Source: Candidatus Iainarchaeum sp.
Lineage (GTDB): Archaea > Iainarchaeota > Iainarchaeia > Iainarchaeales > 0-14-0-20-34-12
NCBI GenBank assembly: GCA_030649345.1
Contig: JAUSKK010000002.1
Span: 6,189 to 38,188, forward strand
Reading direction: 5' to 3'
Length of the DNA stretch: 32,000 bases
Shown here in pieces: positions 9,450 through 31,932 of the stretch. The translations under genes and the position numbers were made by a program. Below the pieces are notes generated by a model, which was given only the letters and a program-made list of their open reading frames with translations, was not told the DNA's origin and did not search any database. Numbering within the stretch: the first letter of the stretch is position 1; every line of letters starts with the position of its first letter.

Positions 9450-10208
9450 TTATCCTAAATGAGTGGTTCGCTTGGGATGCACTACAAAACCATAGGGTTT
9501 TTCAATTTTAGCTGGGTGCATTCGCAAAGAATGATTGGTTGAATGCATTTTATGAACCATCAAAGCACGATCAAATTGACGGCCTTTCTGCACTAAATAC
9601 AAAGCAATCACGCCATCTACCACATATTCTTCCACACCATAAACAGAAATCAATCCTTTATGGTCGTGCATGTCACACAATAACAAAGAAGTACAGCCTA
9701 ATTTTTTAATGGATTTTTCTAAATCCAATAAAGCTCTTCGTACTTTAAATTCATTCTGAAAATACATTGCAACAATCGAAATTGAGTCAATCACTAAACG
9801 AGTTGACTTTGAACGAACCACAGAATCTTCAATTTCCAATAACAATTTTTCAAAATCATACAAAGCAGGCTGAACCAAGGTTAACTTTTTTTCTCGAATA
9901 TATTCACGCGCAGGCCAGCCAAACAATTCAAGCTGAGTAACAATTGAATCTATGGATTCTTCTAAAGTAACAAAACACACAGGTTCGCCTTCTTGAATTC
10001 CTTGCATTAGAAAACTCAAACCCAAAGTAGTCTTTCCAGTTCCTGTCTTTCCAGTAACCAAAATCATGGAATTCTTAGGCAAACCGCCTTCCATTAAGTC
10101 ATCTAAACCACGTACACCTGTAGGCATTCGCTCAATTGAAATAGGCTGATCCAAAATCGCAGTATCCACTGAAGTTTCTACAATACTTTTAGCATTCATA
10201 CAATACAC
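9450..10208 (-). CDS. KaiC/RadA-like RecA-superfamily ATPase (single domain)
   Basis: GVRGLDDLMEGGLP, Walker A GKTGTGKT, Walker B RLVIDSI. About 250 aa, as in archaeal KaiC-like proteins. Confidence 0.8.
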   Translation of the reverse strand: MYCMNAKSIVETSVDTAILDQPISIERMPTGVRGLDDLMEGGLPKNSMILVTGKTGTGKTTLGLSFLMQGIQEGEPVCFVTLEESIDSIVTQLELFGWPAREYIREKKLTLVQPALYDFEKLLLEIEDSVVRSKSTRLVIDSISIVAMYFQNEFKVRRALLDLEKSIKKLGCTSLLLCDMHDHKGLISVYGVEEYVVDGVIALYLVQKGRQFDRALMVHKMHSTNHSLRMHPAKIEKPYGFVVHPKRTTHLG

Positions 10209-16026: not shown

Positions 16027-16120
16027 GGCTCAGAGTTGATGCCAGCTTGCGATCAAGCGTACCGCATGCATTAAGGTAGTTTACTGCTAACGTTCAACAC
16101 CTCATAAATATGCTAAGACT
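16027..16120. repeat. Partial duplicate (unit 1) of the unit containing the C/D sRNA; same ends, different interior
   Basis: Shares GGCTCAGAGTTGA (13/13), TTCAACAC-TCA-TAAATA (about 16/18) and TAAGACT with 16291-16470, in the same order. Confidence 0.5.
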
Positions 16121-16290
16121 CGGATTTAAGACAATAAAATAAATTGCGAGCAAAGCGAGTACGTGCTGCTGAAGCGAAGCGAAAGCAGCACTATTTTCTT
16201 TTGGGAACTTGCTGCAAAATCCTTGATTTTGCACATATGCAAAATTTTCAATTTTGCAGTATAGCTTTTCTTTTTCTAAAAGAAAAGATA
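16121..16290. repeat. Four-hairpin structured element, copy B (possible non-autonomous mobile element or structured RNA)
   Basis: Hairpins: 16163-16170/16184-16191 (8 bp, loop GAAGCGAAGCGAA); 16213-16221/16225-16233 (9 bp, loop CTT); 16238-16246/16250-16258 (9 bp, loop TTC, extended by ATA/TAT across bulged G16259); 16265-16274/16278-16287 (10 bp, loop TCT). Ends are TTTAAGACAAT and GATA. Confidence 0.65.
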
Positions 16291-16356
16291 GGCTCAGAGT
16301 TGAGTTATTTCATCACCAGCGTTCACGCGTCAGAAGGTGTTAACATCATCATTGCC
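16291..16356 (-). ncRNA. C/D box sRNA (2'-O-methylation guide)
   Basis: Minus strand reads GGC-A-AUGAUGA(C)-UGUUAACACCUU(12 nt)-CUGA(D')-CGCGUGAACGCUG-GUGAUGA(C')-AAUAACUCAACU(12 nt)-CUGA(D)-GCC. All four boxes are consensus, both guides are exactly 12 nt, and there is a GGC/GCC terminal stem. Confidence 0.7.
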
Positions 16357-16478
16357 AAAGAATTAGTACATCGTACTCTTTTTAACTTAAATCATCAAAA
16401 TTCGAATACTGATCCCAAAAAAGATTAATTTAACTTTCAACACTCAATAAATAGGCCATTCAATAAGACTATAAAAAA

Positions 16479-24424: not shown

Positions 24425-26193
24425 AAGCAGTCGAAATGCAAAAAGTTCGGGTCACAGGCCCTAAACTATTTTTACGCGAAGTCATTCAAGCACTGCACAC
24501 AGCTAAACTCATGCACTTAATCAGCTATGAAAAAAAAGATCAAGACTATTTCAATATCGGAAGTCCTTTTTCTGAAGCAACCGATTATTCCAATGCAGTA
24601 ATTGAAACACGATCTTTAATTGATTTTTTTAAAATCAAAGGAACTGGAAAAACAATCAACATCGAAAATGCTGCTGGAAAAATCCATACACTTCATAAAG
24701 AATTTCAAAATACATTAAAAATTCAAAAAGAAATTAAAGACACAATCAAAGAACTGGAAGGAAAAAATACCAACCAATTTTTTGAAACAGAAATTAATCA
24801 AAAAATTATTACACAATACAAAAACTTAGATATTTTTTTGGGAACCATTCAAAAACCTTTGGATAAAAAACAAATTGAAAAAAGTACTGCAAAATTCGAA
24901 TTGATTGAAAAAACAATCGACAAAAAAAATTGGATTGCTTTATTTGCTGACAAAAAAAGCAAAGAAAATATTCAAACACTTTTAAGAGAACATGGATTTA
25001 GCGAAGTAAAATACGTACACATTGATTTCAAACAAATTGAAAAAGAGTTAAATACAGCCAAAAAACAACTCGAAGAAACAGAACATACACTGAAACAAAT
25101 CGAAAACGAAAAACAATGGCTTTTAGATATTGAATACACCTTAAGCCAAGAAATTGAAAAAGCAGAAGTGCCTTTGCATTTTGCAACATCCAAAAACTCA
25201 TTTATTATTCACGGATGGATTCCAGCCAAACAATTAACTGAATTTAAGAAAAAATTAAATACAAAAACTATGGAAAAAATTTATTTTGAAGAATTTAAAG
25301 ACACCGAAAATGCGCCAGTGCAACTAAACAATCCTAAAGCCATCAGCCCATTTGAATTTTTTTTAAACTTATATACTTTACCCAAATATTATGAACTAGA
25401 TCCCAGCGCATTAATGGCATTTACATTTCCATTCTTTTTCGGATTCATGCTAGGCGATGTAGGCTATGGAGTCATTGCATTGATTCTGTTTCAAATTGTA
25501 AAACGAAAATTCAAAGACTTACAAGTTCAAGCCATTGCCAATATTTTAACCTTAGCCAGTATTGCCAGCATTATTTTTGGATTTGTATTCGGAGAAGTAT
25601 TTGGAGAAGAATTCATTGAACACCCTTTACTGAACCGAGTGCATGACATTAACACCATGCTTTTGGTCACAATAGCAGTTGGAATTATTCACTTGAATTT
25701 AGGATTTATTTTAGGATTCTACAACAAACTCAAACACCATGGATTCAAACACGCTTTGCTTGAAAAAGGAAGCTGGATTATAATCGAAATTGGAATTGCA
25801 ACAGCTCTTTTAGCAAACCAAACAGTCGGAGCAATCATAGCAGTCATTGGATTAATTATGTTATACAAAGGAGAAGGATTCAGAGGAATGATTGAGTTGC
25901 CAGCCTTGCTTAGCAATATTTTATCCTATGCACGATTATTCGCCATAGGCCTAGCTTCAGTTCAATTGGCCTTAATTGTAAACATGCTGGCAGGACAAGC
26001 TCTTGGCTTAGGAATTATAGGATACGTTTTAGCGGCATTTGTAATACTCATCGGCCATGGACTTAATTTATTCCTAGGCTTATTGGGGCCATTCATTCAA
26101 TCTTTGCGATTGCATTATGTTGAATGGTTTTCAAAATTCTTCGAAGGCGGAGGAGAACCCTACAAGCCTTTTGGAATCAAAGAAAAAGCATAA
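24418..26193 (+). CDS. atpI: A-type ATP synthase subunit I (stator a-subunit)
   Basis: N-terminal soluble coiled-coil half, C-terminal multi-TM half with the essential-Arg motif LSYARLFAIGLAS. Confidence 0.9.
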   Translation: MLKAVEMQKVRVTGPKLFLREVIQALHTAKLMHLISYEKKDQDYFNIGSPFSEATDYSNAVIETRSLIDFFKIKGTGKTINIENAAGKIHTLHKEFQNTLKIQKEIKDTIKELEGKNTNQFFETEINQKIITQYKNLDIFLGTIQKPLDKKQIEKSTAKFELIEKTIDKKNWIALFADKKSKENIQTLLREHGFSEVKYVHIDFKQIEKELNTAKKQLEETEHTLKQIENEKQWLLDIEYTLSQEIEKAEVPLHFATSKNSFIIHGWIPAKQLTEFKKKLNTKTMEKIYFEEFKDTENAPVQLNNPKAISPFEFFLNLYTLPKYYELDPSALMAFTFPFFFGFMLGDVGYGVIALILFQIVKRKFKDLQVQAIANILTLASIASIIFGFVFGEVFGEEFIEHPLLNRVHDINTMLLVTIAVGIIHLNLGFILGFYNKLKHHGFKHALLEKGSWIIIEIGIATALLANQTVGAIIAVIGLIMLYKGEGFRGMIELPALLSNILSYARLFAIGLASVQLALIVNMLAGQALGLGIIGYVLAAFVILIGHGLNLFLGLLGPFIQSLRLHYVEWFSKFFEGGGEPYKPFGIKEKA

Positions 26194-26226
26194 CAAGATT
26201 TAAAAAAATTTCAATACACACGTATA

Positions 26227-26305
26227 ATAGTAATATACACTATTACTATATTTAACAAAAATAAAACAAAGTGATAAAAAAATGGTTTCAAAATCAAGGA
26301 TTTTG
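26227..26305. repeat. Hairpin cluster in the atpI-atpK spacer (degenerate relative of the four-hairpin element)
   Basis: ATAGTAATA-TACAC-TATTACTAT (26227-26249, 9 bp). CAAAATC-AAG-GATTTTG (26289-26305), whose core AAAATCAAGGATTTT differs at 1 of 15 positions from AAAATCAAAGATTTT in copy A. Confidence 0.35.
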
Positions 26306-26335
26306 GCATAATTGTCAAAAGCTTAATAGATTTTG

Positions 26336-26364
26336 AAAACTTTAAAAAACTGGGAGGTTTTTTA
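26336..26364 (+). promoter_or_regulatory. Conserved SD-containing leader immediately upstream of atpK
   Basis: AAAACTTTAAAAAACTGGGAGGTTTTTTA-ATG is 26/29 identical to the leader of atpB. Confidence 0.5.
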
Positions 26365-26598
26365 ATGGCAGACATCAACACAGGGTTAATTGCAATCGGG
26401 GCAAGTATTGCAATGGCAGCAAGTGCTTTGGCAGCCGCATGGGCTGAAAAAGAAATTGGAACAGCCGCAGTAGGAGCTTTAGCTGAAAAAGAACAATTAT
26501 TCGGAAAAGCACTGATCTTAACAGTTATTCCGGAAACCATTGTAATTTTCGGATTGGTTGTAGCTATCCTAATCATCGGAATGGCTGGAAAGGCTTAA
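26365..26598 (+). CDS. atpK: A-type ATP synthase proteolipid subunit K (c)
   Basis: 77 aa, two TM helices, ion-binding Glu in VIPETIVIFG. Confidence 0.9.
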   Translation: MADINTGLIAIGASIAMAASALAAAWAEKEIGTAAVGALAEKEQLFGKALILTVIPETIVIFGLVVAILIIGMAGKA

Positions 26599-26686
26599 AC
26601 AGTCTGCCGCCAGTCAATTAAGAAAACAAGGAAAACCATGGGTTTAAAATTTGTAACAAATTTTAAAATCCCAGGGGGAATTTTAA

Positions 26687-27247
26687 ATGGGTTTGGAAAA
26701 AGTAATTCAAGAAATCAAAGAACAAACAGAAAATGAATGCAAAAACATTCTAAAACAAGCCAGCGAAACAAGGCAGCACATTATCCAAGAAGCCAATGCC
26801 CAAGCTGAACAATTCAAACAACAAGCCAGCAAAGAATCTGACTTGTTAGCTGAAGAAATTAAAAACAAAGAATTATCTCAGCATCGCTTAGAACAAAACA
26901 AAAAAATTATGGAAACCAAATCCAAAGCAGTTCAAGAAATTTTCCAAACAGCATTGGAAAAAACAAAAACTTTAAGTGAAAATCAACGAAAACAATTATT
27001 GAAAAAATTACTGGAAAAAGGCTTGAAAGAATTGGAAAACGCAAAGTATGTGTACACCAATAAACAAGATACAAAATTAGTGCAGGAATTAGCCAAACAA
27101 TTAAAACATGCAGGCGAAATTCAGTGCACTTCAGGAATTGTTTTAGAAAACGCAGACAAAACAATCAAAGTCAATTATACATTTGAAGTTTTGTTTGAAA
27201 AAACCAAAGAGGAGAATTTACATGAAATTTCAAATGATGCGTTTTAA
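26687..27247 (+). CDS. atpE: A-type ATP synthase subunit E
   Basis: 186 aa. N-terminal long charged helix plus C-terminal globular domain (GIVLENADKTIKVNYTFE). Correct position in the operon. Confidence 0.85.
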   Translation: MGLEKVIQEIKEQTENECKNILKQASETRQHIIQEANAQAEQFKQQASKESDLLAEEIKNKELSQHRLEQNKKIMETKSKAVQEIFQTALEKTKTLSENQRKQLLKKLLEKGLKELENAKYVYTNKQDTKLVQELAKQLKHAGEIQCTSGIVLENADKTIKVNYTFEVLFEKTKEENLHEISNDAF

Positions 27248-28208
27248 TCCATTCGAATCCGCCAGCGGAAGCTCTTTGGATAAAACTTTTCGAAAAAGTT
27301 TTAACGGAAACAGCGGATTTCCCTACACCAATACCAGAGTACGGGTAATGAAAACACGACTATTGGGCGGAGCAGATTACAAACGATTAATGAATATGAG
27401 CGTACCTGAAATAACAAGATTTCTAGAAGAATCAGACTATAAAACAGAAATCGATTCATTGTCCCAGCAATTCAAAGGACTAAACTTAATTGAATACAGT
27501 TTAATGAAAAATTTAGAACGAACCTTTAAACGCATTTACGATTTTTCACTCAAACAAGCCAACCAGCAACTTGGATTATTTTTAAAAAAATGGGATTACT
27601 GGAATATTAAAATATTACTGCGAGGCTTACAAACCAAGTCCAACAAAAATGAAATCATGCACAACATGGTTTTGGTGGGAGACTTTAAATCAGAATTTTT
27701 TGAACGAATCCTTAACAATGCACAAACCATTGAACAAGCCATTGATTACTTTAAAGACACCAATTTTTACCCTATTTTAAGCAAACACAAAAATAGTTTG
27801 GCAAAATTAGAAGATGAACTGGATCGATTTTATTATTTAAATTTATTGGAAAATTCCAGCAAAGAATTACGCAATTTTGGAAAAAACCAAATTAAAAGCA
27901 TCAATACATTAAACATGCTGCGATTAAAAGACTTGGATTCCAAAAAAGATTTTTTGATTCCCGGAATGGACGAAATCATGCAAGTCCCCGAAGGCTTAGA
28001 TGACTTAGAAAAAATTGCTTACGTAAAACGAGAACAACTCGAAAATGGATTGCATAAAATGCATTCATTCAAATCCAACATGGATCCATTGCTGGGTTAT
28101 TTTACAGCCAAAGAAATCGAAGTCAACAATTTACGAATGATTATTCGCGGAAAACAAACAGGAATTGCCGCAGAAAAAATTGAAAAAAGTTTAGTATATT
28201 TAAGTTAA
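27222..28208 (+). CDS. atpC: A-type ATP synthase subunit C
   Basis: Position and size fit. YTNTRVRVMKTRLL matches the AtpC N-terminus. I prefer the ATG at 27222 (GAGGAG upstream) over the TTG at 27183 on the track. Confidence 0.85.
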   Translation: MKFQMMRFNPFESASGSSLDKTFRKSFNGNSGFPYTNTRVRVMKTRLLGGADYKRLMNMSVPEITRFLEESDYKTEIDSLSQQFKGLNLIEYSLMKNLERTFKRIYDFSLKQANQQLGLFLKKWDYWNIKILLRGLQTKSNKNEIMHNMVLVGDFKSEFFERILNNAQTIEQAIDYFKDTNFYPILSKHKNSLAKLEDELDRFYYLNLLENSSKELRNFGKNQIKSINTLNMLRLKDLDSKKDFLIPGMDEIMQVPEGLDDLEKIAYVKREQLENGLHKMHSFKSNMDPLLGYFTAKEIEVNNLRMIIRGKQTGIAAEKIEKSLVYLS

Positions 28209-28237
28209 AAAAATAACTTTAAAAAAATGGTGACGCT

Positions 28238-28537
28238 TTGGAAATTGCAATTTTAGGAAACGATGAATTTGTAACTGGATTCAGACTCAGCGGAGTCAAA
28301 AACATAATTACTGCTGAAGGAAAAGAACTAAGCAAAAAAATTGAAGAAGTCATTGACCAGCAAAAAATAGGAATTTTAGTCATGGAACATTTAGATTTTT
28401 CACAATTAAACAACAATGTCAAAAAAAAATTAGACCGAACTGTAACACCTGTAGTTGTAACATTAAGCAAAGATGCCAAAACATCCGATTTACGGGAATT
28501 GGTTAAAAAAAGTATTGGAATTGACTTGTGGAAATAA
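28238..28537 (+). CDS. atpF: A-type ATP synthase subunit F
   Basis: 99 aa. IAILGNDEFVTGFRLSGV is the typical subunit F N-terminus. TTG start after GGTGA. Confidence 0.85.
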   Translation: MEIAILGNDEFVTGFRLSGVKNIITAEGKELSKKIEEVIDQQKIGILVMEHLDFSQLNNNVKKKLDRTVTPVVVTLSKDAKTSDLRELVKKSIGIDLWK

Positions 28538-28585
28538 TAAAATGATTATATTTAATAGATAAAATATTTAGGAAAAGGTGAACCT

Positions 28586-30328
28586 ATGAGCGAAGCAACA
28601 ATTTACAGAATTTCAGGACCAGTAGTCATTGCCAAAGGATTGAGTGCCAAAATGTATGATTTGGTTTTGGTTGGAAAAGAAAAACTTTTAGGAGAAGTCA
28701 TTCAAATTACAGGAGAAACTACCACCATTCAAGTCTATGAAGAAACATCTGGATTAACACCCGGAGAACCCATTGAAAACACACAAGCACCTTTATCGGT
28801 TGAATTGGGTCCAGGAATTTTAACTCAAATTTACGATGGAATCCAAAGACCTTTAGCTGGACTGCAAGAAATTATGGGAGACTTCATTAAACGCGGAGCC
28901 ACAGCTTCAGCCTTGGATCGAAAAAAGAAATGGGAATTCAAAGCAATTGCTAAAAAAGGAGACTCAGTTTCCGGCGGAGATATTCTAGGAACAGTTCAAG
29001 AAACAGTCAACATTGAACACAAAATATTAGTACCACCGAATATTAAAGGAACATTAAAAAATATTCAAAGCGGAAAATTTAATATTGATGAAGTTATTGG
29101 AACTTTAGAAAATGGAACTGAATTAAAACTAGCCCATAAATGGCCAGTCAGACAACAAAGGCCTTACCAGCAAAAATTAGCACCCGACATTCCATTAATC
29201 ACTGGACAAAGAATTATTGACACACTATTTCCAATTGCTAAAGGAGGAACTGCAGCAATTCCAGGACCTTTTGGTTCAGGAAAAACAGTAACTCAAAGTC
29301 AATTAGCTAAATGGAGTGATGCCCAAATTGTAGTCTACATTGGATGCGGTGAAAGAGGCAATGAGATGACTGAAGTATTAACCGAATTTCCTCACTTGCA
29401 AGATGTAAAAACTGGCCGGCCTTTAATGGAACGAACTGTGTTAATTGCAAACACTTCCAATATGCCAGTGGCAGCCAGAGAAGCCAGTGTTTATACAGGA
29501 ATGACGATTGCAGAATATTTTAGAGACCAAGGATTGGATGTCAGCTTAATGGCAGACTCTACAAGCAGATGGGCTGAAGCCATGAGAGAAATTGGTTCAC
29601 GCTTAGAAGAAATGCCAGGAGAAGAAGGATATCCAGCATACTTAGCTTCCAGATTATCTGAATTCTATGAACGAGCCGGCCGAGTAATTTGCATTGGAAA
29701 AGACGCAAAAATGGGAAGTGTTACAGCCATTGGAGCAGTCAGTCCAGCAGGCGGAGACTTCTCTGAACCAGTCACCCAAAATACATTAAAGATTACCAAA
29801 GTTTTCTGGGCATTGGATGCAAAACTAGCACAAAAAAGACACTTCCCAGCCATCAATTGGCTAGAAAGTTATTCTTTGTATTCTGAAAACTTAAAAAACT
29901 GGTTTGCAAAAAATGTCGCCGAAGACTGGCCAGCTCAAAGAACAGAAGCCATGAAAATTTTGCAAAAAGAAGCAGAATTACAAGAAATTGTTCAATTGGT
30001 AGGCAGCGATTCACTGCCAGAAAAAGAACGATTAACTTTAGAAATCGCAAAACTAATCCGAGAAGCTTTCCTGCAGCAAAACGCCTACCATGAAGTGGAT
30101 ACTTATTGTAGTCCCAAAAAACAACACGGAATTATGAAAGCAATTTTAGAATATGCTGAAATGGGAAGAACAGCTTTAGAACAAGGAGCCAGCATTGAAA
30201 GAATTGCCAATATTGAAAGCAAAAACAAATTAGTTAAAATAGCATTTAAAACAGAAAAAGAATTTGAAACAGAAATCAAACAAATCCATCAACAAATGGA
30301 ACAAGAGTTCAAAGAAATTATTACATAA
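28586..30328 (+). CDS. atpA: A-type ATP synthase catalytic subunit A
   Basis: Walker A GPFGSGKT, non-homologous insert region, SRWAEALREI-like [23 protein letters not shown]. Confidence 0.95.
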
Positions 30329-30449
30329 TATTAAACAAGACAATCGAACGAAGTGAAGATTGTCTATCAGGAGGTATCATAAAATCAAAGATTTTATGTA
30401 TATGCAAAACTTAGAGTTTTGCAGTATATCGGAACCTAAGGTTCTGATA
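30329..30449. repeat. Four-hairpin structured element, copy A, inserted between the atpA stop and a duplicated copy of the atpA 3' end
   Basis: Hairpins: 30338-30345/30358-30365 (8 bp, loop GAACGAAGTGAA); 30378-30386/30390-30398 (9 bp, loop AAA); 30403-30411/30415-30423 (9 bp, loop TAG, extended by TATA/TATA across bulged G30424); 30429-30436/30440-30447 (8 bp with one G-T, loop TAA). Ends are TTAAACAAGACAAT and GATA. Confidence 0.65.
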
Positions 30450-30482
30450 ATGGAACAAGAATTTAAAGAAATAATTGCATAA
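30450..30482 (+). repeat. Non-coding duplicate of the last 10 codons plus stop of atpA
   Basis: ATGGAACAAGAATTTAAAGAAATAATTGCATAA versus atpA 30296-30328 ATGGAACAAGAGTTCAAAGAAATTATTACATAA: 29/33 identical. It would encode [10 protein letters not shown] versus [10 protein letters not shown]. Confidence 0.8.
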
Positions 30483-30526
30483 TTTTGAAAGGTGATACAG
30501 AAATGATTTTAAAATTAGGAATTTTA

Positions 30527-30555
30527 AAAACTTTAAAAAACCAGGAGATTTTTTA
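30527..30555 (+). promoter_or_regulatory. Conserved SD-containing leader immediately upstream of atpB
   Basis: AAAACTTTAAAAAACCAGGAGATTTTTTA-ATG is 26/29 identical to the leader of atpK. Confidence 0.5.
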
Positions 30556-31932
30556 ATGAAAGAATACAAAACAATTACTAGAATTGCAGGCCCTTTGGTT
30601 TTCGTAGAAAAAACACACGAAATAGCTTACGGTGAATTGGTTGAAATTGAATTAGAAGATGGTTCGAAAAAAAACGGGCAAGTATTGGACACCAGCAAAG
30701 ATTTAGTAATTGTACAAGTATTCGAAGGAACTCGAAGTATTTCAAAAAAATGCAGTGTAAAATTCACCGGAAAAACAATCAAATTAGGAGTCAGTAAAGA
30801 CTTACTTGGAAGAGTATTTTCTGGTTTAGGAAAGCCTAGAGATAATGGACCAGAAATTATTCCAGAAATGCATTTAGATGTAAACGGAGCAGCCATTAAT
30901 CCGTATTCTAGAGAAAGCCCAAAAGATTTTGTGCAAACAGGAATTAGTTCCATTGATGGATTGAATACTTTAGTCAAAGGACAAAAATTGCCATTATTTT
31001 CAGGAGCAGGATTGCCGCACAACGAAATTGCATTGCAAATTGCAAGACAAGCAAAAATTTCCGACAAAACAGCCATTGTATTTGCAGCCATGGGAATCAC
31101 CAACGAAGAAGCACAGACATTTATTCAAGACTTTGAACAAACCGGAGCATTAGAACGAGCAATTATTTTCTTGAACTTAGCCAATGATCCAGCTATTGAA
31201 AGATTAATTACACCCAGAATGGCTTTAACTGCAGCAGAATATTTAGCATTCGAACACGGCTACGATGTCTTAGTAATTTTAACAGACATGAGTAATTATG
31301 CTGAAAGTTTGCGAGAAATCGGAGCAGCCAGAGAAGAAGTTCCAGGAAGACGAGGATATCCAGGATACATGTATTCTGATTTAGCCAGCATATACGAAAG
31401 AGCAGGAATCATTAAAGGAAAAAAAGGAAGTGTTACACAAATTCCAATTCTAACCATGCCAGGAGACGATATTACACATCCAATTCCAGACTTAACAGGA
31501 TACATTACTGAAGGGCAAATTGTTTTAGGACGAGACTTGCACGCCAAAGGAATTTACGCGCCCATTGACGTATTGCCTTGCTTGAGTAGATTAATGAATC
31601 AAGGAATTGGAAAAGAAAAAACAAGAGAAGACCATAAAGCTGTAGCCAATCAATTGTATGCAGGCTATGCAGAAGGCCGAGCTTTACGAGGTTTAGTTGC
31701 CATTGTTGGAGAAGAAGCCATGAGTGAAAAAGACTTAAAATTTTTAAGATTTGCTGAAGCATTTGAAAACAAATTTGTCACTCAAGGCAGAAACGAAAAT
31801 AGAAGCATTCAACAAACTTTAGACATTGGCTGGCAATTGTTTGCACAACTGCCTAAAACAGAATTAACCAGAATTGAAGACAAATACATTGACAAATATT
31901 TACCCAAAGCAAGTGAAGCAATCGCTAAATAA
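30556..31932 (+). CDS. atpB: A-type ATP synthase subunit B
   Basis: [39 protein letters not shown] block, [17 protein letters not shown]. Confidence 0.95.

Follow-up and report, generated by a model that had tools for sequence, protein, structure and literature searches.

Bacterial REP/BIME sequences and IS200/IS605-derived palindromic elements are short, non-coding, multi-copy repeats of one to several stem-loops, found in intergenic regions and at gene ends. IS200/IS605-type insertion occurs next to a fixed tetra- or pentanucleotide and does not duplicate the target. To our knowledge, prokaryotic transposons make target duplications of 2-15 bp, no small hairpin repeat element is known with about 40 bp of duplicated target at its flanks, and almost nothing is known about mobile DNA in DPANN archaea.

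In fungal mitochondria, mobile-ORF 'gene hybrids' occur in atp6 of Allomyces macrogynus and in atp6, atp9, cox2 and nad3 of Glomus, where the insert is a homing-endonuclease ORF of 0.4-1 kb and the duplicated part of the gene measures 50-300 nt (PMC3630166). Small hairpin repeats also include the double-hairpin elements of Allomyces mtDNA, mitochondrial GC clusters and sponge RHEs (PMC2800124, PMC4478555). CRISPR spacer integration by Cas1-Cas2 duplicates the repeat, and off-target integration creates new arrays (Nivala et al. 2018, as cited in PMC6698737). We analysed a locus with traits of each of these systems in a 32-kb window, by which we mean the whole stretch of 32,000 nucleotides, from an uncultured DPANN archaeon. 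The features of this locus, all on the + strand, are as follows.

28586-30328, +: atpA, A-type ATP synthase catalytic subunit A, 580 aa, complete through its stop codon (ORF; Pfam domains ATP-synt_ab_N/Xtn/ab/VA_C)
30295-30336, +: left, in-gene copy of the repeat: the 10 terminal codons with their stop, plus about 8 nt (repeat comparison)
30337-30448, +: inserted hairpin cassette of about 112-113 nt with four consecutive stem-loops (RNA and DNA folds)
30338-30365, +: HP1, with an 8-bp stem, a GA(A)/GAA internal loop, 2 bp and a GAA triloop
30378-30398, +: HP2
30403-30423, +: HP3
30428-30448, +: HP4, ending exactly at the right repeat
30449-30490, +: right, orphan copy of the atpA 3' end (coding part 29/33 identical)
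30491-30555, +: native-type intercistronic spacer, with a ribosome-binding module common to the spacers upstream of atpK and atpE
30556-31932, +: atpB, subunit B (ORF; tblastn to relatives)

The atpA product is 100% identical to NCBI MDO8427646.1 from a Ca. Diapherotrites archaeon. The last 33 nucleotides of the gene (30296-30328, ATGGAACAAGAGTTCAAAGAAATTATTACATAA) and a second 33-mer at an offset of 154 nt (30450-30482, ATGGAACAAGAATTTAAAGAAATAATTGCATAA) are identical at 29 of 33 positions, and each translates to 10 amino acids, the first copy being the true end of the atpA ORF. Three of the four differences (positions 12, 15 and 24) are synonymous changes at third codon positions, and the fourth (position 28) is a first-position change that exchanges Thr and Ala. 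No other local direct repeat of at least 29/33 within 500 nt exists across the window, and none of the other genes, 34 in all, has a copy of its 3' end downstream (for atpA, 31/36 matches and z = 9.0 relative to shuffled sequence). The initial annotation had described this duplicate and its differences correctly. It had also stated that the similarity stops abruptly at the limits of the 33-mer, which did not hold: the repeat starts 1 nt earlier, with an A at 30295 and 30449, and past the stop codon the copies are still weakly alike at about 5/8 (TATTAAAC vs TTTTGAAA), an extension that is not significant by itself. In register, the repeat thus pairs 30295-30336 with 30449-30490, a length of about 41-42 nt, and an exact run of 12 nt, AATGGAACAAGA, stands at its left end. 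The orphan copy is out of frame with atpA (offset 154 = 3n+1) and is joined directly to the native-type spacer. Frameshifting or readthrough at the end of atpA was considered and rejected, a second stop standing directly after the first (TAA TAT TAA).

The cassette folded strongly, with z = -5.4 as RNA and z = -8.9 as DNA on the + strand, and its limits coincide with hairpins, HP1 and HP4 bounding the insert to the base. It is necessarily co-transcribed with atpA and atpB. The insert had been judged too small to encode a recombinase, and the results agree with this: its 113 nt are non-coding, and the one ORF that crosses it reads the hairpins as 40 codons from a TTG start, with no relatives found. 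The cassette matched no Rfam family at gathering or permissive thresholds and nothing in a BLAST comparison with plasmids and phages, and no translated copy was present among 5.8 billion proteins. Neither a transposase, integrase, reverse transcriptase or cas gene nor a CRISPR array was found within the 32 kb. An integron attC site was rejected, since a single long imperfect hairpin is expected there, compared with four hairpins here. The HP2 motif AAAATCNNNGATTTT was also present in the atpI-atpK spacer (3 matches vs 0.04 expected).

We then compared the atpA-atpB spacer with those of relatives. It measures 227 nt here and 2-50 nt among more than 80 relatives, with 17-50 nt in five Diapherotrites-like relatives and a median of about 5 nt in distant ones. 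Neither the cassette nor a duplicated atpA end lies between atpA and atpB of the relatives examined, so that the DNA at this site is extra with respect to all of them. Subtracting 154 nt leaves a spacer of 73 nt, which matches in type the operon's other spacers, and TTTAAAAAACYRGGAGRTTTTTTAATG occurs at 26341 and 30532 (0 expected by chance). These results support the initial proposal that DNA was inserted into the 3' end of atpA and that a duplicated gene end keeps atpA intact.

The same annotation had regarded the insert as a member of a repeated hairpin element whose other copies might also be flanked by duplicated gene ends. A second copy was indeed present near 16 kb, next to a small RNA gene.

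16163-16290, +: second, diverged cassette copy (exact core, covariance model and folds), with HP1 at 16163-16191, HP2 at 16213-16233, HP3 at 16238-16258 and HP4 at 16265-16287
16291-16356, -: C/D-box sRNA gene adjoining the second cassette (read from the sequence; sub-threshold in Rfam)
16027-16039, -: left direct repeat GGCTCAGAGTTGA, an exact 13-mer 264 nt from its partner
16027-16105, -: the repeat plus a degenerate sRNA-like stretch with a C-box-like ATGAGG at 16100-16105 (sequence reading)

The double-hairpin core ATATGCAAAAYTTNNNNTTTTGCAGTATA is exact in both cassettes (0 expected), and a covariance model gave 79 bits for both copies and at most 19 bits for other window sequence. Within the core, three pairs have changed in a compensatory way between the cassettes and none is broken. 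HP1 and HP4 have wholly different stems in the two copies, yet these stems are paired, their compensatory changes being a direct reading rather than the output of a pair counter, and the HP1 loop motif GAA-NC-GAA-GN-GAA is kept in both. The second copy may extend 5' to a common octamer, AAGACAAT, at 16128. The two copies are oppositely oriented to local transcription, which runs on the + strand at atpA and on the - strand among the 16-kb neighbours; a DNA-level element is therefore favoured over a dedicated RNA. An H/ACA or C/D sRNA identity of the cassette itself was rejected, no boxes being kept between the copies. When we searched for a third cassette with the covariance model of the double-hairpin core, none was found in the window, in 82 relatives' loci, in L207 and L208, or in 100 metagenome loci of the 120 among the matches listed. 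Core-pattern scans of metagenome contigs (120 matches listed) and viral contigs gave chance matches only, without neighbouring hairpins. One unrelated multi-hairpin repeat family appeared in these scans, only through selection by pattern.

The adjoining gene carries the ordered boxes, two 12-nt guides and terminal stem of an archaeal C/D-box sRNA: C ATGATGA at 16346-16352, D' CTGA at 16330-16333, C' TGATGA at 16310-16315 and D CTGA at 16294-16297, spaced as ATGATGA, 12 nt, CTGA, 14 nt, TGATGA, 12 nt, CTGA, with ggc/gcc ends. About 20 Rfam C/D-box hits to it fell below the gathering thresholds (best E = 0.001, up to 25 bits). Its 3'-terminal 13 nt (16291-16303) form the right direct repeat and abut the cassette end as at atpA, so the second copy is likewise bracketed by a duplicated gene terminus. 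Local alignment of the flanks scored 44 against 26 +/- 4.5 for shuffles, the strong similarity being limited to 13 nt, and the flanks can also be read as two paralogous sRNA genes with a common functional 3' end. The flanking repeats of the two cassettes are unrelated (AATGGAACAAGA... at atpA, GGCTCAGAGTTGA... at the 16-kb copy), which argues against a site-specific recombinase with one attachment core and fits duplication of whatever target was hit. At both loci an exact run of 12-13 nt stands on the left of the repeat, and the arm that comes after it has diverged more.

Duplicated 3' ends were also found in the relative L207 (JGI 3300003891, Ga0063011_10007193), where repeat-insert-repeat arrays are formed from the end of atpF and the end of another gene, without the cassette and with a duplicated length of 36-40 nt. 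The L207 sequence has an N-gap (9699-9806), so the structure of its atpF-end array is provisional. Whole-unit tandem repeats were rejected as a description of these arrays, TRF not detecting them as such. In the atpF array, the inserts after copies 3 and 4 are partly homologous, and a spacer-origin test of the L207 inserts gave no viral matches. By eye, the differences between the orphan 3'-end copies of L207 and the gene copy fall at non-synonymous sites, a pattern of simple decay.

The atpA locus looks like the scar of a small, undescribed mobile element. The explanation that we tentatively prefer, and to which we give somewhat less than an even chance, is that a non-autonomous hairpin element entered atpA within its last codons and duplicated a long stretch of target, so that the gene is kept whole by the upstream copy. 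According to this model, a short non-coding element of four stem-loops, one of a small family of repeats represented here by two or more diverged copies, would have entered the last atpA codons in an ancestor of this Diapherotrites genome and duplicated about 41 bp of target, from the tenth-last codon through the stop to a few bases further on. The upstream duplicate would have stayed with atpA, and the essential gene would have survived because this copy supplies an intact end and stop. The downstream duplicate would be a non-coding relic attached to the original atpA-atpB spacer, while the in-gene copy would since have changed only where selection tolerates it. One-step insertion with target duplication yields the [repeat][insert][repeat] layout and an insert bounded by HP1 and HP4, and unrelated repeat sequences at the two loci are as expected for it. 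Because the duplicate seems to run past the stop codon, its limits would not have been set by coding needs. We infer that two strand cuts spaced by about 40 bp, with subsequent fill-in, gave rise to the duplication, as with a fixed-'ruler' integrase, and that it was not carried in with the element. Since only two copies are known and no further copy occurred in any collection searched, it is likewise by inference that the element is or was mobile and was acted on in trans. The cassette may secondarily act as an mRNA hairpin, a role that the duplication does not require.

Several observations count against the insertion reading. A duplication of about 41 bp is far beyond those of known prokaryotic transposons, and the cassette has neither terminal inverted repeats nor mobility enzyme genes within 32 kb. 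At the second locus, the flanks are strongly similar for 13 nt only. The exact run at the left repeat end in both loci also fits a recombination core with an imported arm, and the proportion of synonymous differences (three of four) leans slightly to an imported end.

The best surviving alternative, which we nevertheless regard as rather unlikely, is an imported replacement end, as in a 'hybrid gene'. It supposes that the atpA 3' end and the cassette were recombined in together from a related lineage, one join being homologous (within atpA or at the 12-nt core AATGGAACAAGA) and the other illegitimate, so that the in-gene end would be foreign and the orphan native; homing-endonuclease ORFs produce duplicated C-termini by this route in fungal mitochondrial genes. 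The initial annotation had taken the bias toward synonymous differences as a sign of such an import, and the one amino acid exchange is conservative. If the end was simply duplicated, and purifying selection acted on the in-gene copy while the orphan was neutral, this bias has p = 0.05-0.17, falling to p = 0.01-0.05 only when every change is assigned to the neutral orphan. The four differences are therefore compatible with insertion and target duplication, and that argument was not supported. By our own count, both G/C-to-A/T differences sit on the only two of eight G/C sites where such a change is silent, which favours an imported end. The exact left-end runs with a diverged arm at both loci would also match the layout of a crossover core and an element-borne mimic, the orphan runs directly into the native-type spacer, and a precedent is documented in Allomyces and Glomus mitochondria (PMC3630166). 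Against this, there is no endonuclease or recombinase gene in or near the insert, the unrelated cores at the two loci mean that no single site-specific enzyme explains both, and the L207 orphan ends have diverged by decay. No donor or empty-site lineage for atpA was found among 15 billion proteins, in which the 90%-identity cluster has one member. The next AtpA relative is 75% identical in protein, at which distance synonymous sites are saturated, and an AtpA scan of the genome collection gave relatives at 67% identity or less only.

A resident structure combined with a separate local duplication appears improbable to us. Here the four hairpins would belong natively between the two cistrons as an RNA or DNA structure (stabilising the mRNA, marking a processing site or forming REP/BIME-like protein-binding palindromes), and replication slippage or template switching, at a spot rich in hairpins, would have copied the atpA end. 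The very strong fold, the stems kept by compensatory change, the obligatory co-transcription, the HP2 motif in the atpI-atpK spacer and the cassette-free 3'-end duplications of L207 in this lineage all accord with it. However, simple tandem duplication gives [R E][R E], not [R E][R], so at least two events are needed. The cassette and the long spacer are both absent from this site in relatives, the cassette is bounded exactly by the repeat, and with opposite orientation to transcription the conserved loop sequences would differ in the RNA.

A broader version of the insertion model, which we consider a long shot, would treat the atpA scar and the L207 arrays as products of one DPANN (Diapherotrites-type) integration activity. 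A Cas1-family or comparable integrase with a 'ruler' of about 36-42 bp, acting off CRISPR arrays, would insert short DNA including the four-hairpin cassette and duplicate about 40 bp each time. Survivors would pile up at gene 3' ends because a duplicate there regenerates the gene end.

We also evaluated the assembly. A Logan assembly made independently from run SRR13727527 agrees at every base with window positions 25586-30391, covering the left copy and the first half of the insert and ending before the right junction. Logan contigs end inside both cassette copies (30391 and 16246), a pattern that a repeated or heterogeneous element would produce. No independent contig over the right junction was on record when atpB, the 40-aa ORF and a solute-binding protein were looked up. 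An assembly artefact, in which a metagenome assembler joined two strain variants of the atpA end in tandem, is very improbable. In its favour, the source is a MAG, the Logan assembly stops short of the right junction and the exact atpB product is not on record elsewhere. Against it, the cassette-to-orphan join needs spanning reads, strain variation alone cannot make a path that returns from the cassette to the gene end, Logan gives exactly the same left junction and half cassette, and the same architecture recurs at a second locus on the same contig.

If the cassette inserts with a duplication of about 40 bp, its mode of insertion would be unlike that of known prokaryotic transposons, and the locus would show how the essential, highly conserved atpA can tolerate an insertion in its last codons. 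If the in-gene end was instead imported, the mitochondrial 'hybrid gene' would have here its first counterpart on an archaeal chromosome, without an endonuclease. Ruler integration by a Cas1-family or comparable integrase, if true, would be a class of insertion event or mobile element not described before in archaea. Orphan gene ends of this kind mark insertion scars, and annotators could take them for small ORFs or pseudogenes.

Comparison with known classes led us to reject several of them. A MITE does not fit, as CAAGACAATCG... at one end and ...GGTTCTGAT at the other do not form an inverted pair, the hairpins stand separately one after another, and the flanking repeats (about 41 nt for atpA, 13 nt or more for the 16-kb cassette) are not a short fixed duplication of 2-10 bp. 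An IS200/IS605-derived palindromic element or REP was rejected on the presence of a target duplication, with no Y1 (HUH) transposase in 32 kb. The differences expected of a diversity-generating retroelement are confined to template adenines, whereas those here are G/A, C/T, T/A and A/G; there is no reverse transcriptase in 32 kb, and atpA is a conserved housekeeping gene. For an archaeal bulge-helix-bulge intron, the junctions are direct repeats and not complementary, the folds show local hairpins only, and the stop codon precedes the insert. A site-specific integrative element (tyrosine or serine recombinase, attL/attR) was rejected as well, given the different cores (AATGGAACAAGA vs GGCTCAGAGTTGA) and a 113-nt insert without a recombinase. 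Integrative elements at gene or tRNA 3' ends that carry a replacement end in attP do share with this locus the duplicated 3' end, the preserved gene and a short exact core with a diverged arm, but the insert here is about 100 times too small.

The small hairpin repeats (PMC2800124, PMC4478555) resemble the cassette in being short, non-coding, multi-copy stem-loops at intergenic regions or gene ends with structure kept over sequence. They differ in having no target duplication or one of 2-3 bp, compared with about 41 nt here, and no sequence similarity to them was found. Unlike Cas1-Cas2 integration, the atpA insert is structured, has a paralogue elsewhere in the genome and measures 113 nt rather than the 25-40 nt of a spacer (about 25-45 bp for a CRISPR or neo-CRISPR unit). 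That system duplicates a target of fixed length (about 28-37 bp) on both sides of the DNA it inserts; the 41-42 nt at atpA and the 36-40 nt in L207 are in or just above this range, and the atpA value is at the upper edge of the 28-40 bp or so of a CRISPR unit. The fungal mitochondrial hybrids (PMC3630166) have an endonuclease ORF between the copies, while here the insert is 113 nt of hairpins without an ORF, on an archaeal chromosome, and the foreign origin of one copy is putative. In both cases, a duplicated C-terminus flanks the insert in the same order of gene core, inserted C-terminal copy, insert and native C-terminal relic, the gene is functional, and the two ends differ mostly at silent sites.

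To characterize the duplicated 3' end of atpA, we aligned its two copies and scanned the 32-kb window for comparable repeats. The two 33-mers reported in the initial annotation were confirmed at 30296-30328 and 30450-30482; they are 29/33 identical and both translate to 10-residue peptides, the first being the real terminus of the 580-aa A-type ATPase subunit A ORF. The similarity had been described as stopping abruptly at both ends of the 33-mer, but the match starts 1 base earlier and continues weakly for about 8 bases past the stop. In register, the repeat unit is ~41-42 nt (in-gene copy, 30295-30336; downstream orphan copy, 30449-30490), and its first 12 nt (AATGGAACAAGA) are exact between the copies. 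The pair has no counterpart in the 32 kb: no other local direct repeat reaches 29/33 within 500 nt, and atpA alone among 34 genes has a downstream copy of its own 3' end (31/36 matches, z = 9.0).

AtpA has the same sequence as NCBI MDO8427646.1, a protein of a 'Candidatus Diapherotrites archaeon' MAG (DPANN). Its 90%-identity cluster has no other member, the next relative is 75% identical, and no variant of the protein is on record. The operon (order atpI-K-E-C-F-A-B) lies amid ordinary housekeeping genes, and the window contained no transposase, integrase, reverse transcriptase, cas gene or CRISPR-like array. The atpA-atpB spacer is 227 nt, versus 50, 17, 36, 19 and 14 nt in five Diapherotrites-like relatives; in distant archaea and bacteria it is typically 2-20 nt and never exceeds ~50 nt (median 5.5 nt over 18 distant loci with gene ends fully aligned, L082 and L083 included). 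This comparison found neither the hairpin element nor the atpA-end duplicate in any relative examined. Subtracting 154 nt from the spacer leaves 73 nt (30483-30555) that match the spacers 5' of atpK and atpE in type, a near-identical ribosome-binding module included. The short spacers in relatives and this native-type remainder indicate that the orphan copy lies on native ground and that ~154 nt are extra.

The module common to the spacers 5' of atpK, atpE and atpB (26270-26368, 26630-26690 and 30489-30558) reads AAAG(G)TGATA...ATG(R)TTT..AAAAT ... TTTAAAAAACYRGGAGRTTTTTTAATG; it fits the degenerate pattern 27/27 at 26341 and 30532, and probably serves the atp operon as a repeatedly used cassette for translation initiation or as an internal promoter. 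Downstream, atpB of the closest relative (L082 7143-9737, GCA_964442255.1, and L083) encodes 864 aa, a length due to an intein that bears a LAGLIDADG-type homing endonuclease (Pfam Intein_splicing, faint LAGLIDADG_3 match); the window's atpB encodes 458 aa, without an intein.

The insert between the repeats is 112-113 nt and consists of four stem-loops and nothing more:

30338-30365, HP1: 8-bp stem, GA(A)/GAA internal loop, 2 bp and a GAA triloop
30378-30398, HP2: stem-loop of the atpA cassette
30403-30423, HP3: stem-loop of the atpA cassette
30428-30448, HP4: stem-loop whose final base adjoins the orphan copy

Compared with shuffled sequence, the cassette folded with z = -5.4 as RNA (with flanks) and -8.9 as DNA. 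HP4 has a single G-T pair on the + strand, and its - strand fold is weaker. HP2 and HP3 are alike (TGCAAAAY...RTTTTGCA), which makes the core a double hairpin; a covariance model of it scores the reverse strand too. The cassette matched no Rfam family and contained no terminal inverted repeats or credible ORF. A diverged second copy was found beside an sRNA gene:

16163-16290, + strand: second cassette, detected by core pattern and covariance model
16291-16356, - strand: C/D-box sRNA gene of canonical archaeal form (ATGATGA, 12 nt, CTGA, 14 nt, TGATGA, 12 nt, CTGA; ggc/gcc terminal stem)

Both copies match the 29-nt core pattern exactly (0 expected), and the covariance model gave 79 bits for each, with no other significant match in the window; sequence searches found no further relatives. 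Between the two cores, three base pairs have both bases replaced, and no pair is broken. On direct reading, the HP1 stems differ completely and are still fully complementary (AGACAATC/GATTGTCT vs GTGCTGCT/AGCAGCAC), as are the wholly different HP4 stems, and the HP1 loop motif GAA-NC-GAA-GN-GAA is retained. These findings indicate that the cassette structure has been maintained. The second copy is surrounded by minus-strand genes, and the two copies are thus oppositely oriented relative to local transcription, which argues for DNA-level selection or mobility over one specific RNA. In Logan, an independent assembly of run SRR13727527, contigs SRR13727527_83076 and _409305 stop inside the two cassettes (30391 and 16246) and are elsewhere identical to the window; such ends suggest, and no more than suggest, that the element is present in further copies in the genome or varies within the population.

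An ORF of 40 codons that starts at a TTG (30360-30482) spans HP2-HP4 and finishes with the orphan atpA end and stop; another, of 94 codons (16144-16428), crosses the second cassette, likewise in that frame. Searches found no relatives of either; both look spurious, yet gene callers could annotate them. The HP2 motif, AAAATCNNNGATTTT, occurs a third time (the window has 3 matches vs 0.04 expected) in the atpI-atpK spacer at 26290-26304 with the remaining cassette absent, near an 8-bp hairpin ATAGTAAT/ATTACTAT (~26229-26251); this occurrence may be what is left of a cassette, or else a shared palindrome to which a protein binds. The search also picked up an unrelated ~190-nt element, only because its hairpin TGCAAAATCtttGATTTTGCA fits the pattern. 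This element has at least 5 consecutive hairpins and inverted ends ATAATGAGAGTGTG ... CCCATTATAA (Ga0131853 and related metagenome contigs), with at least 9 near-identical intergenic copies in a bacterial genome (L098, L131, L132, L141, L172, L174, L175, L183, L200).

We then examined the flanks of the second copy. An exact 13-mer, GGCTCAGAGTTGA, brackets it (16027-16039 and 16291-16303), the right one adjoining the cassette end directly, as at atpA. Read on the minus strand, the C/D-box sRNA has the right 13-mer as its 3' end; this sRNA had many Rfam C/D matches, all sub-threshold (best 25 bits, E = 0.001). The left 13-mer closes a degenerate sRNA-like stretch (ATGAGG ... CTGA; 16027-16105, minus strand) that has in common with the sRNA the 3'-terminal 13 nt and part of the D' guide; ATGAGG replaces the C box, and D' and C' boxes are lacking. 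Two readings fit this stretch: a duplicate of the sRNA in decay, or a paralogue of atypical form. The two flanks aligned with a score of 44 vs 26 +/- 4.5 in shuffles. Since the 13-mer is the sRNA 3' end, a gene 3' end on both cassette sides recurs, a point that the initial annotation had proposed to check in further copies; the locus can also be read as a cassette between two paralogous sRNA genes. The flanking repeats of the two cassette loci are unrelated in sequence.

Gene-end duplication also occurs, twice, in the relative L207 (JGI 3300003891, Ga0063011_10007193), whose AtpA is 76% identical and which lacks the cassette. Its atpF end (...IGIDLWKE*) is present in four copies in the atpF-atpA spacer, within 9588-9918:

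9588-9627: atpF-end copy
9653-9692: atpF-end copy (93%)
past an N-gap: two older copies

The end of a 300-aa ORF is present in three copies of ~36-nt units (16034-16194); the inserts between them, 22 and 30 nt long, are unrelated and richer in GC. Both arrays have a repeat-spacer-repeat layout, with 36-40-nt units ending ...GAAT(G/A)AAAC and unrelated GC-richer inserts of 22-30 nt; in the atpF array, the inserts after copies 3 and 4 are partly homologous. The inserts had no viral match, and TRF did not detect the arrays as whole-unit tandem repeats. Relative to the gene copy, the orphan copies carry non-silent changes and indels, which is plain decay. Such downstream copies were found at 3/4051 ORF ends in 1.27 Mb of unrelated loci and at none of four other Diapherotrites-like loci. 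Together, the window and L207 show that 36-42-nt gene-end duplicates around short inserts are recurrent in at least two genomes of the lineage.

Our leading, still tentative, explanation is a non-autonomous hairpin element whose insertion duplicated a long stretch of the target. A single event of insertion plus duplication would yield repeat-insert-repeat with the insert bounded by hairpins. Insertion within a gene is normally lethal; one in the last few codons would be rescued when the duplication restores the gene end and stop, which would explain survival of the scar at the atpA end. Simple tandem duplication would have left two cassettes.

The main rival, which we consider unlikely, is the initial annotation's model of an end imported from another lineage, in its mitochondrial 'hybrid gene' form (PMC3630166). 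As that annotation stated, 3/4 differences between the atpA-end copies are silent, versus a silent share of 14-24% of possible changes in the 30-nt coding stretch, depending on the assumed transition bias. This gives p = 0.01-0.05 if every change fell on a neutral orphan, and p = 0.05-0.17 under the natural null, which lets a neutral orphan take any change and the in-gene copy silent ones only. The silent-site bias is a lean, not a result, and it supports the model slightly, as does the layout of exact core and diverged arm; against it, an endonuclease or recombinase is absent, and the two loci have cores of unrelated sequence. That the hairpins are a resident functional array and the duplication incidental seems improbable, and an assembly artefact very improbable.

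Known from two copies, the cassette is a good lead, short of a demonstrated new element. A 41-bp duplication would call for two strand joins ~40 bp apart, and the only enzymes known to us with a ~40-bp ruler are Cas1-type integrases; unlike in Cas1-type integration, the 113-nt structured insert here is not spacer-like. The one-event fit, the ~40-bp join spacing and the non-spacer-like insert are the grounds on which we commit to the hairpin-element reading. We know of no description of a four-hairpin, ORF-less cassette with a ~40-bp flanking duplication in an archaeal chromosome; its ingredients, namely hairpin repeat elements, target duplications and duplicated gene ends beside insertions, are already known.
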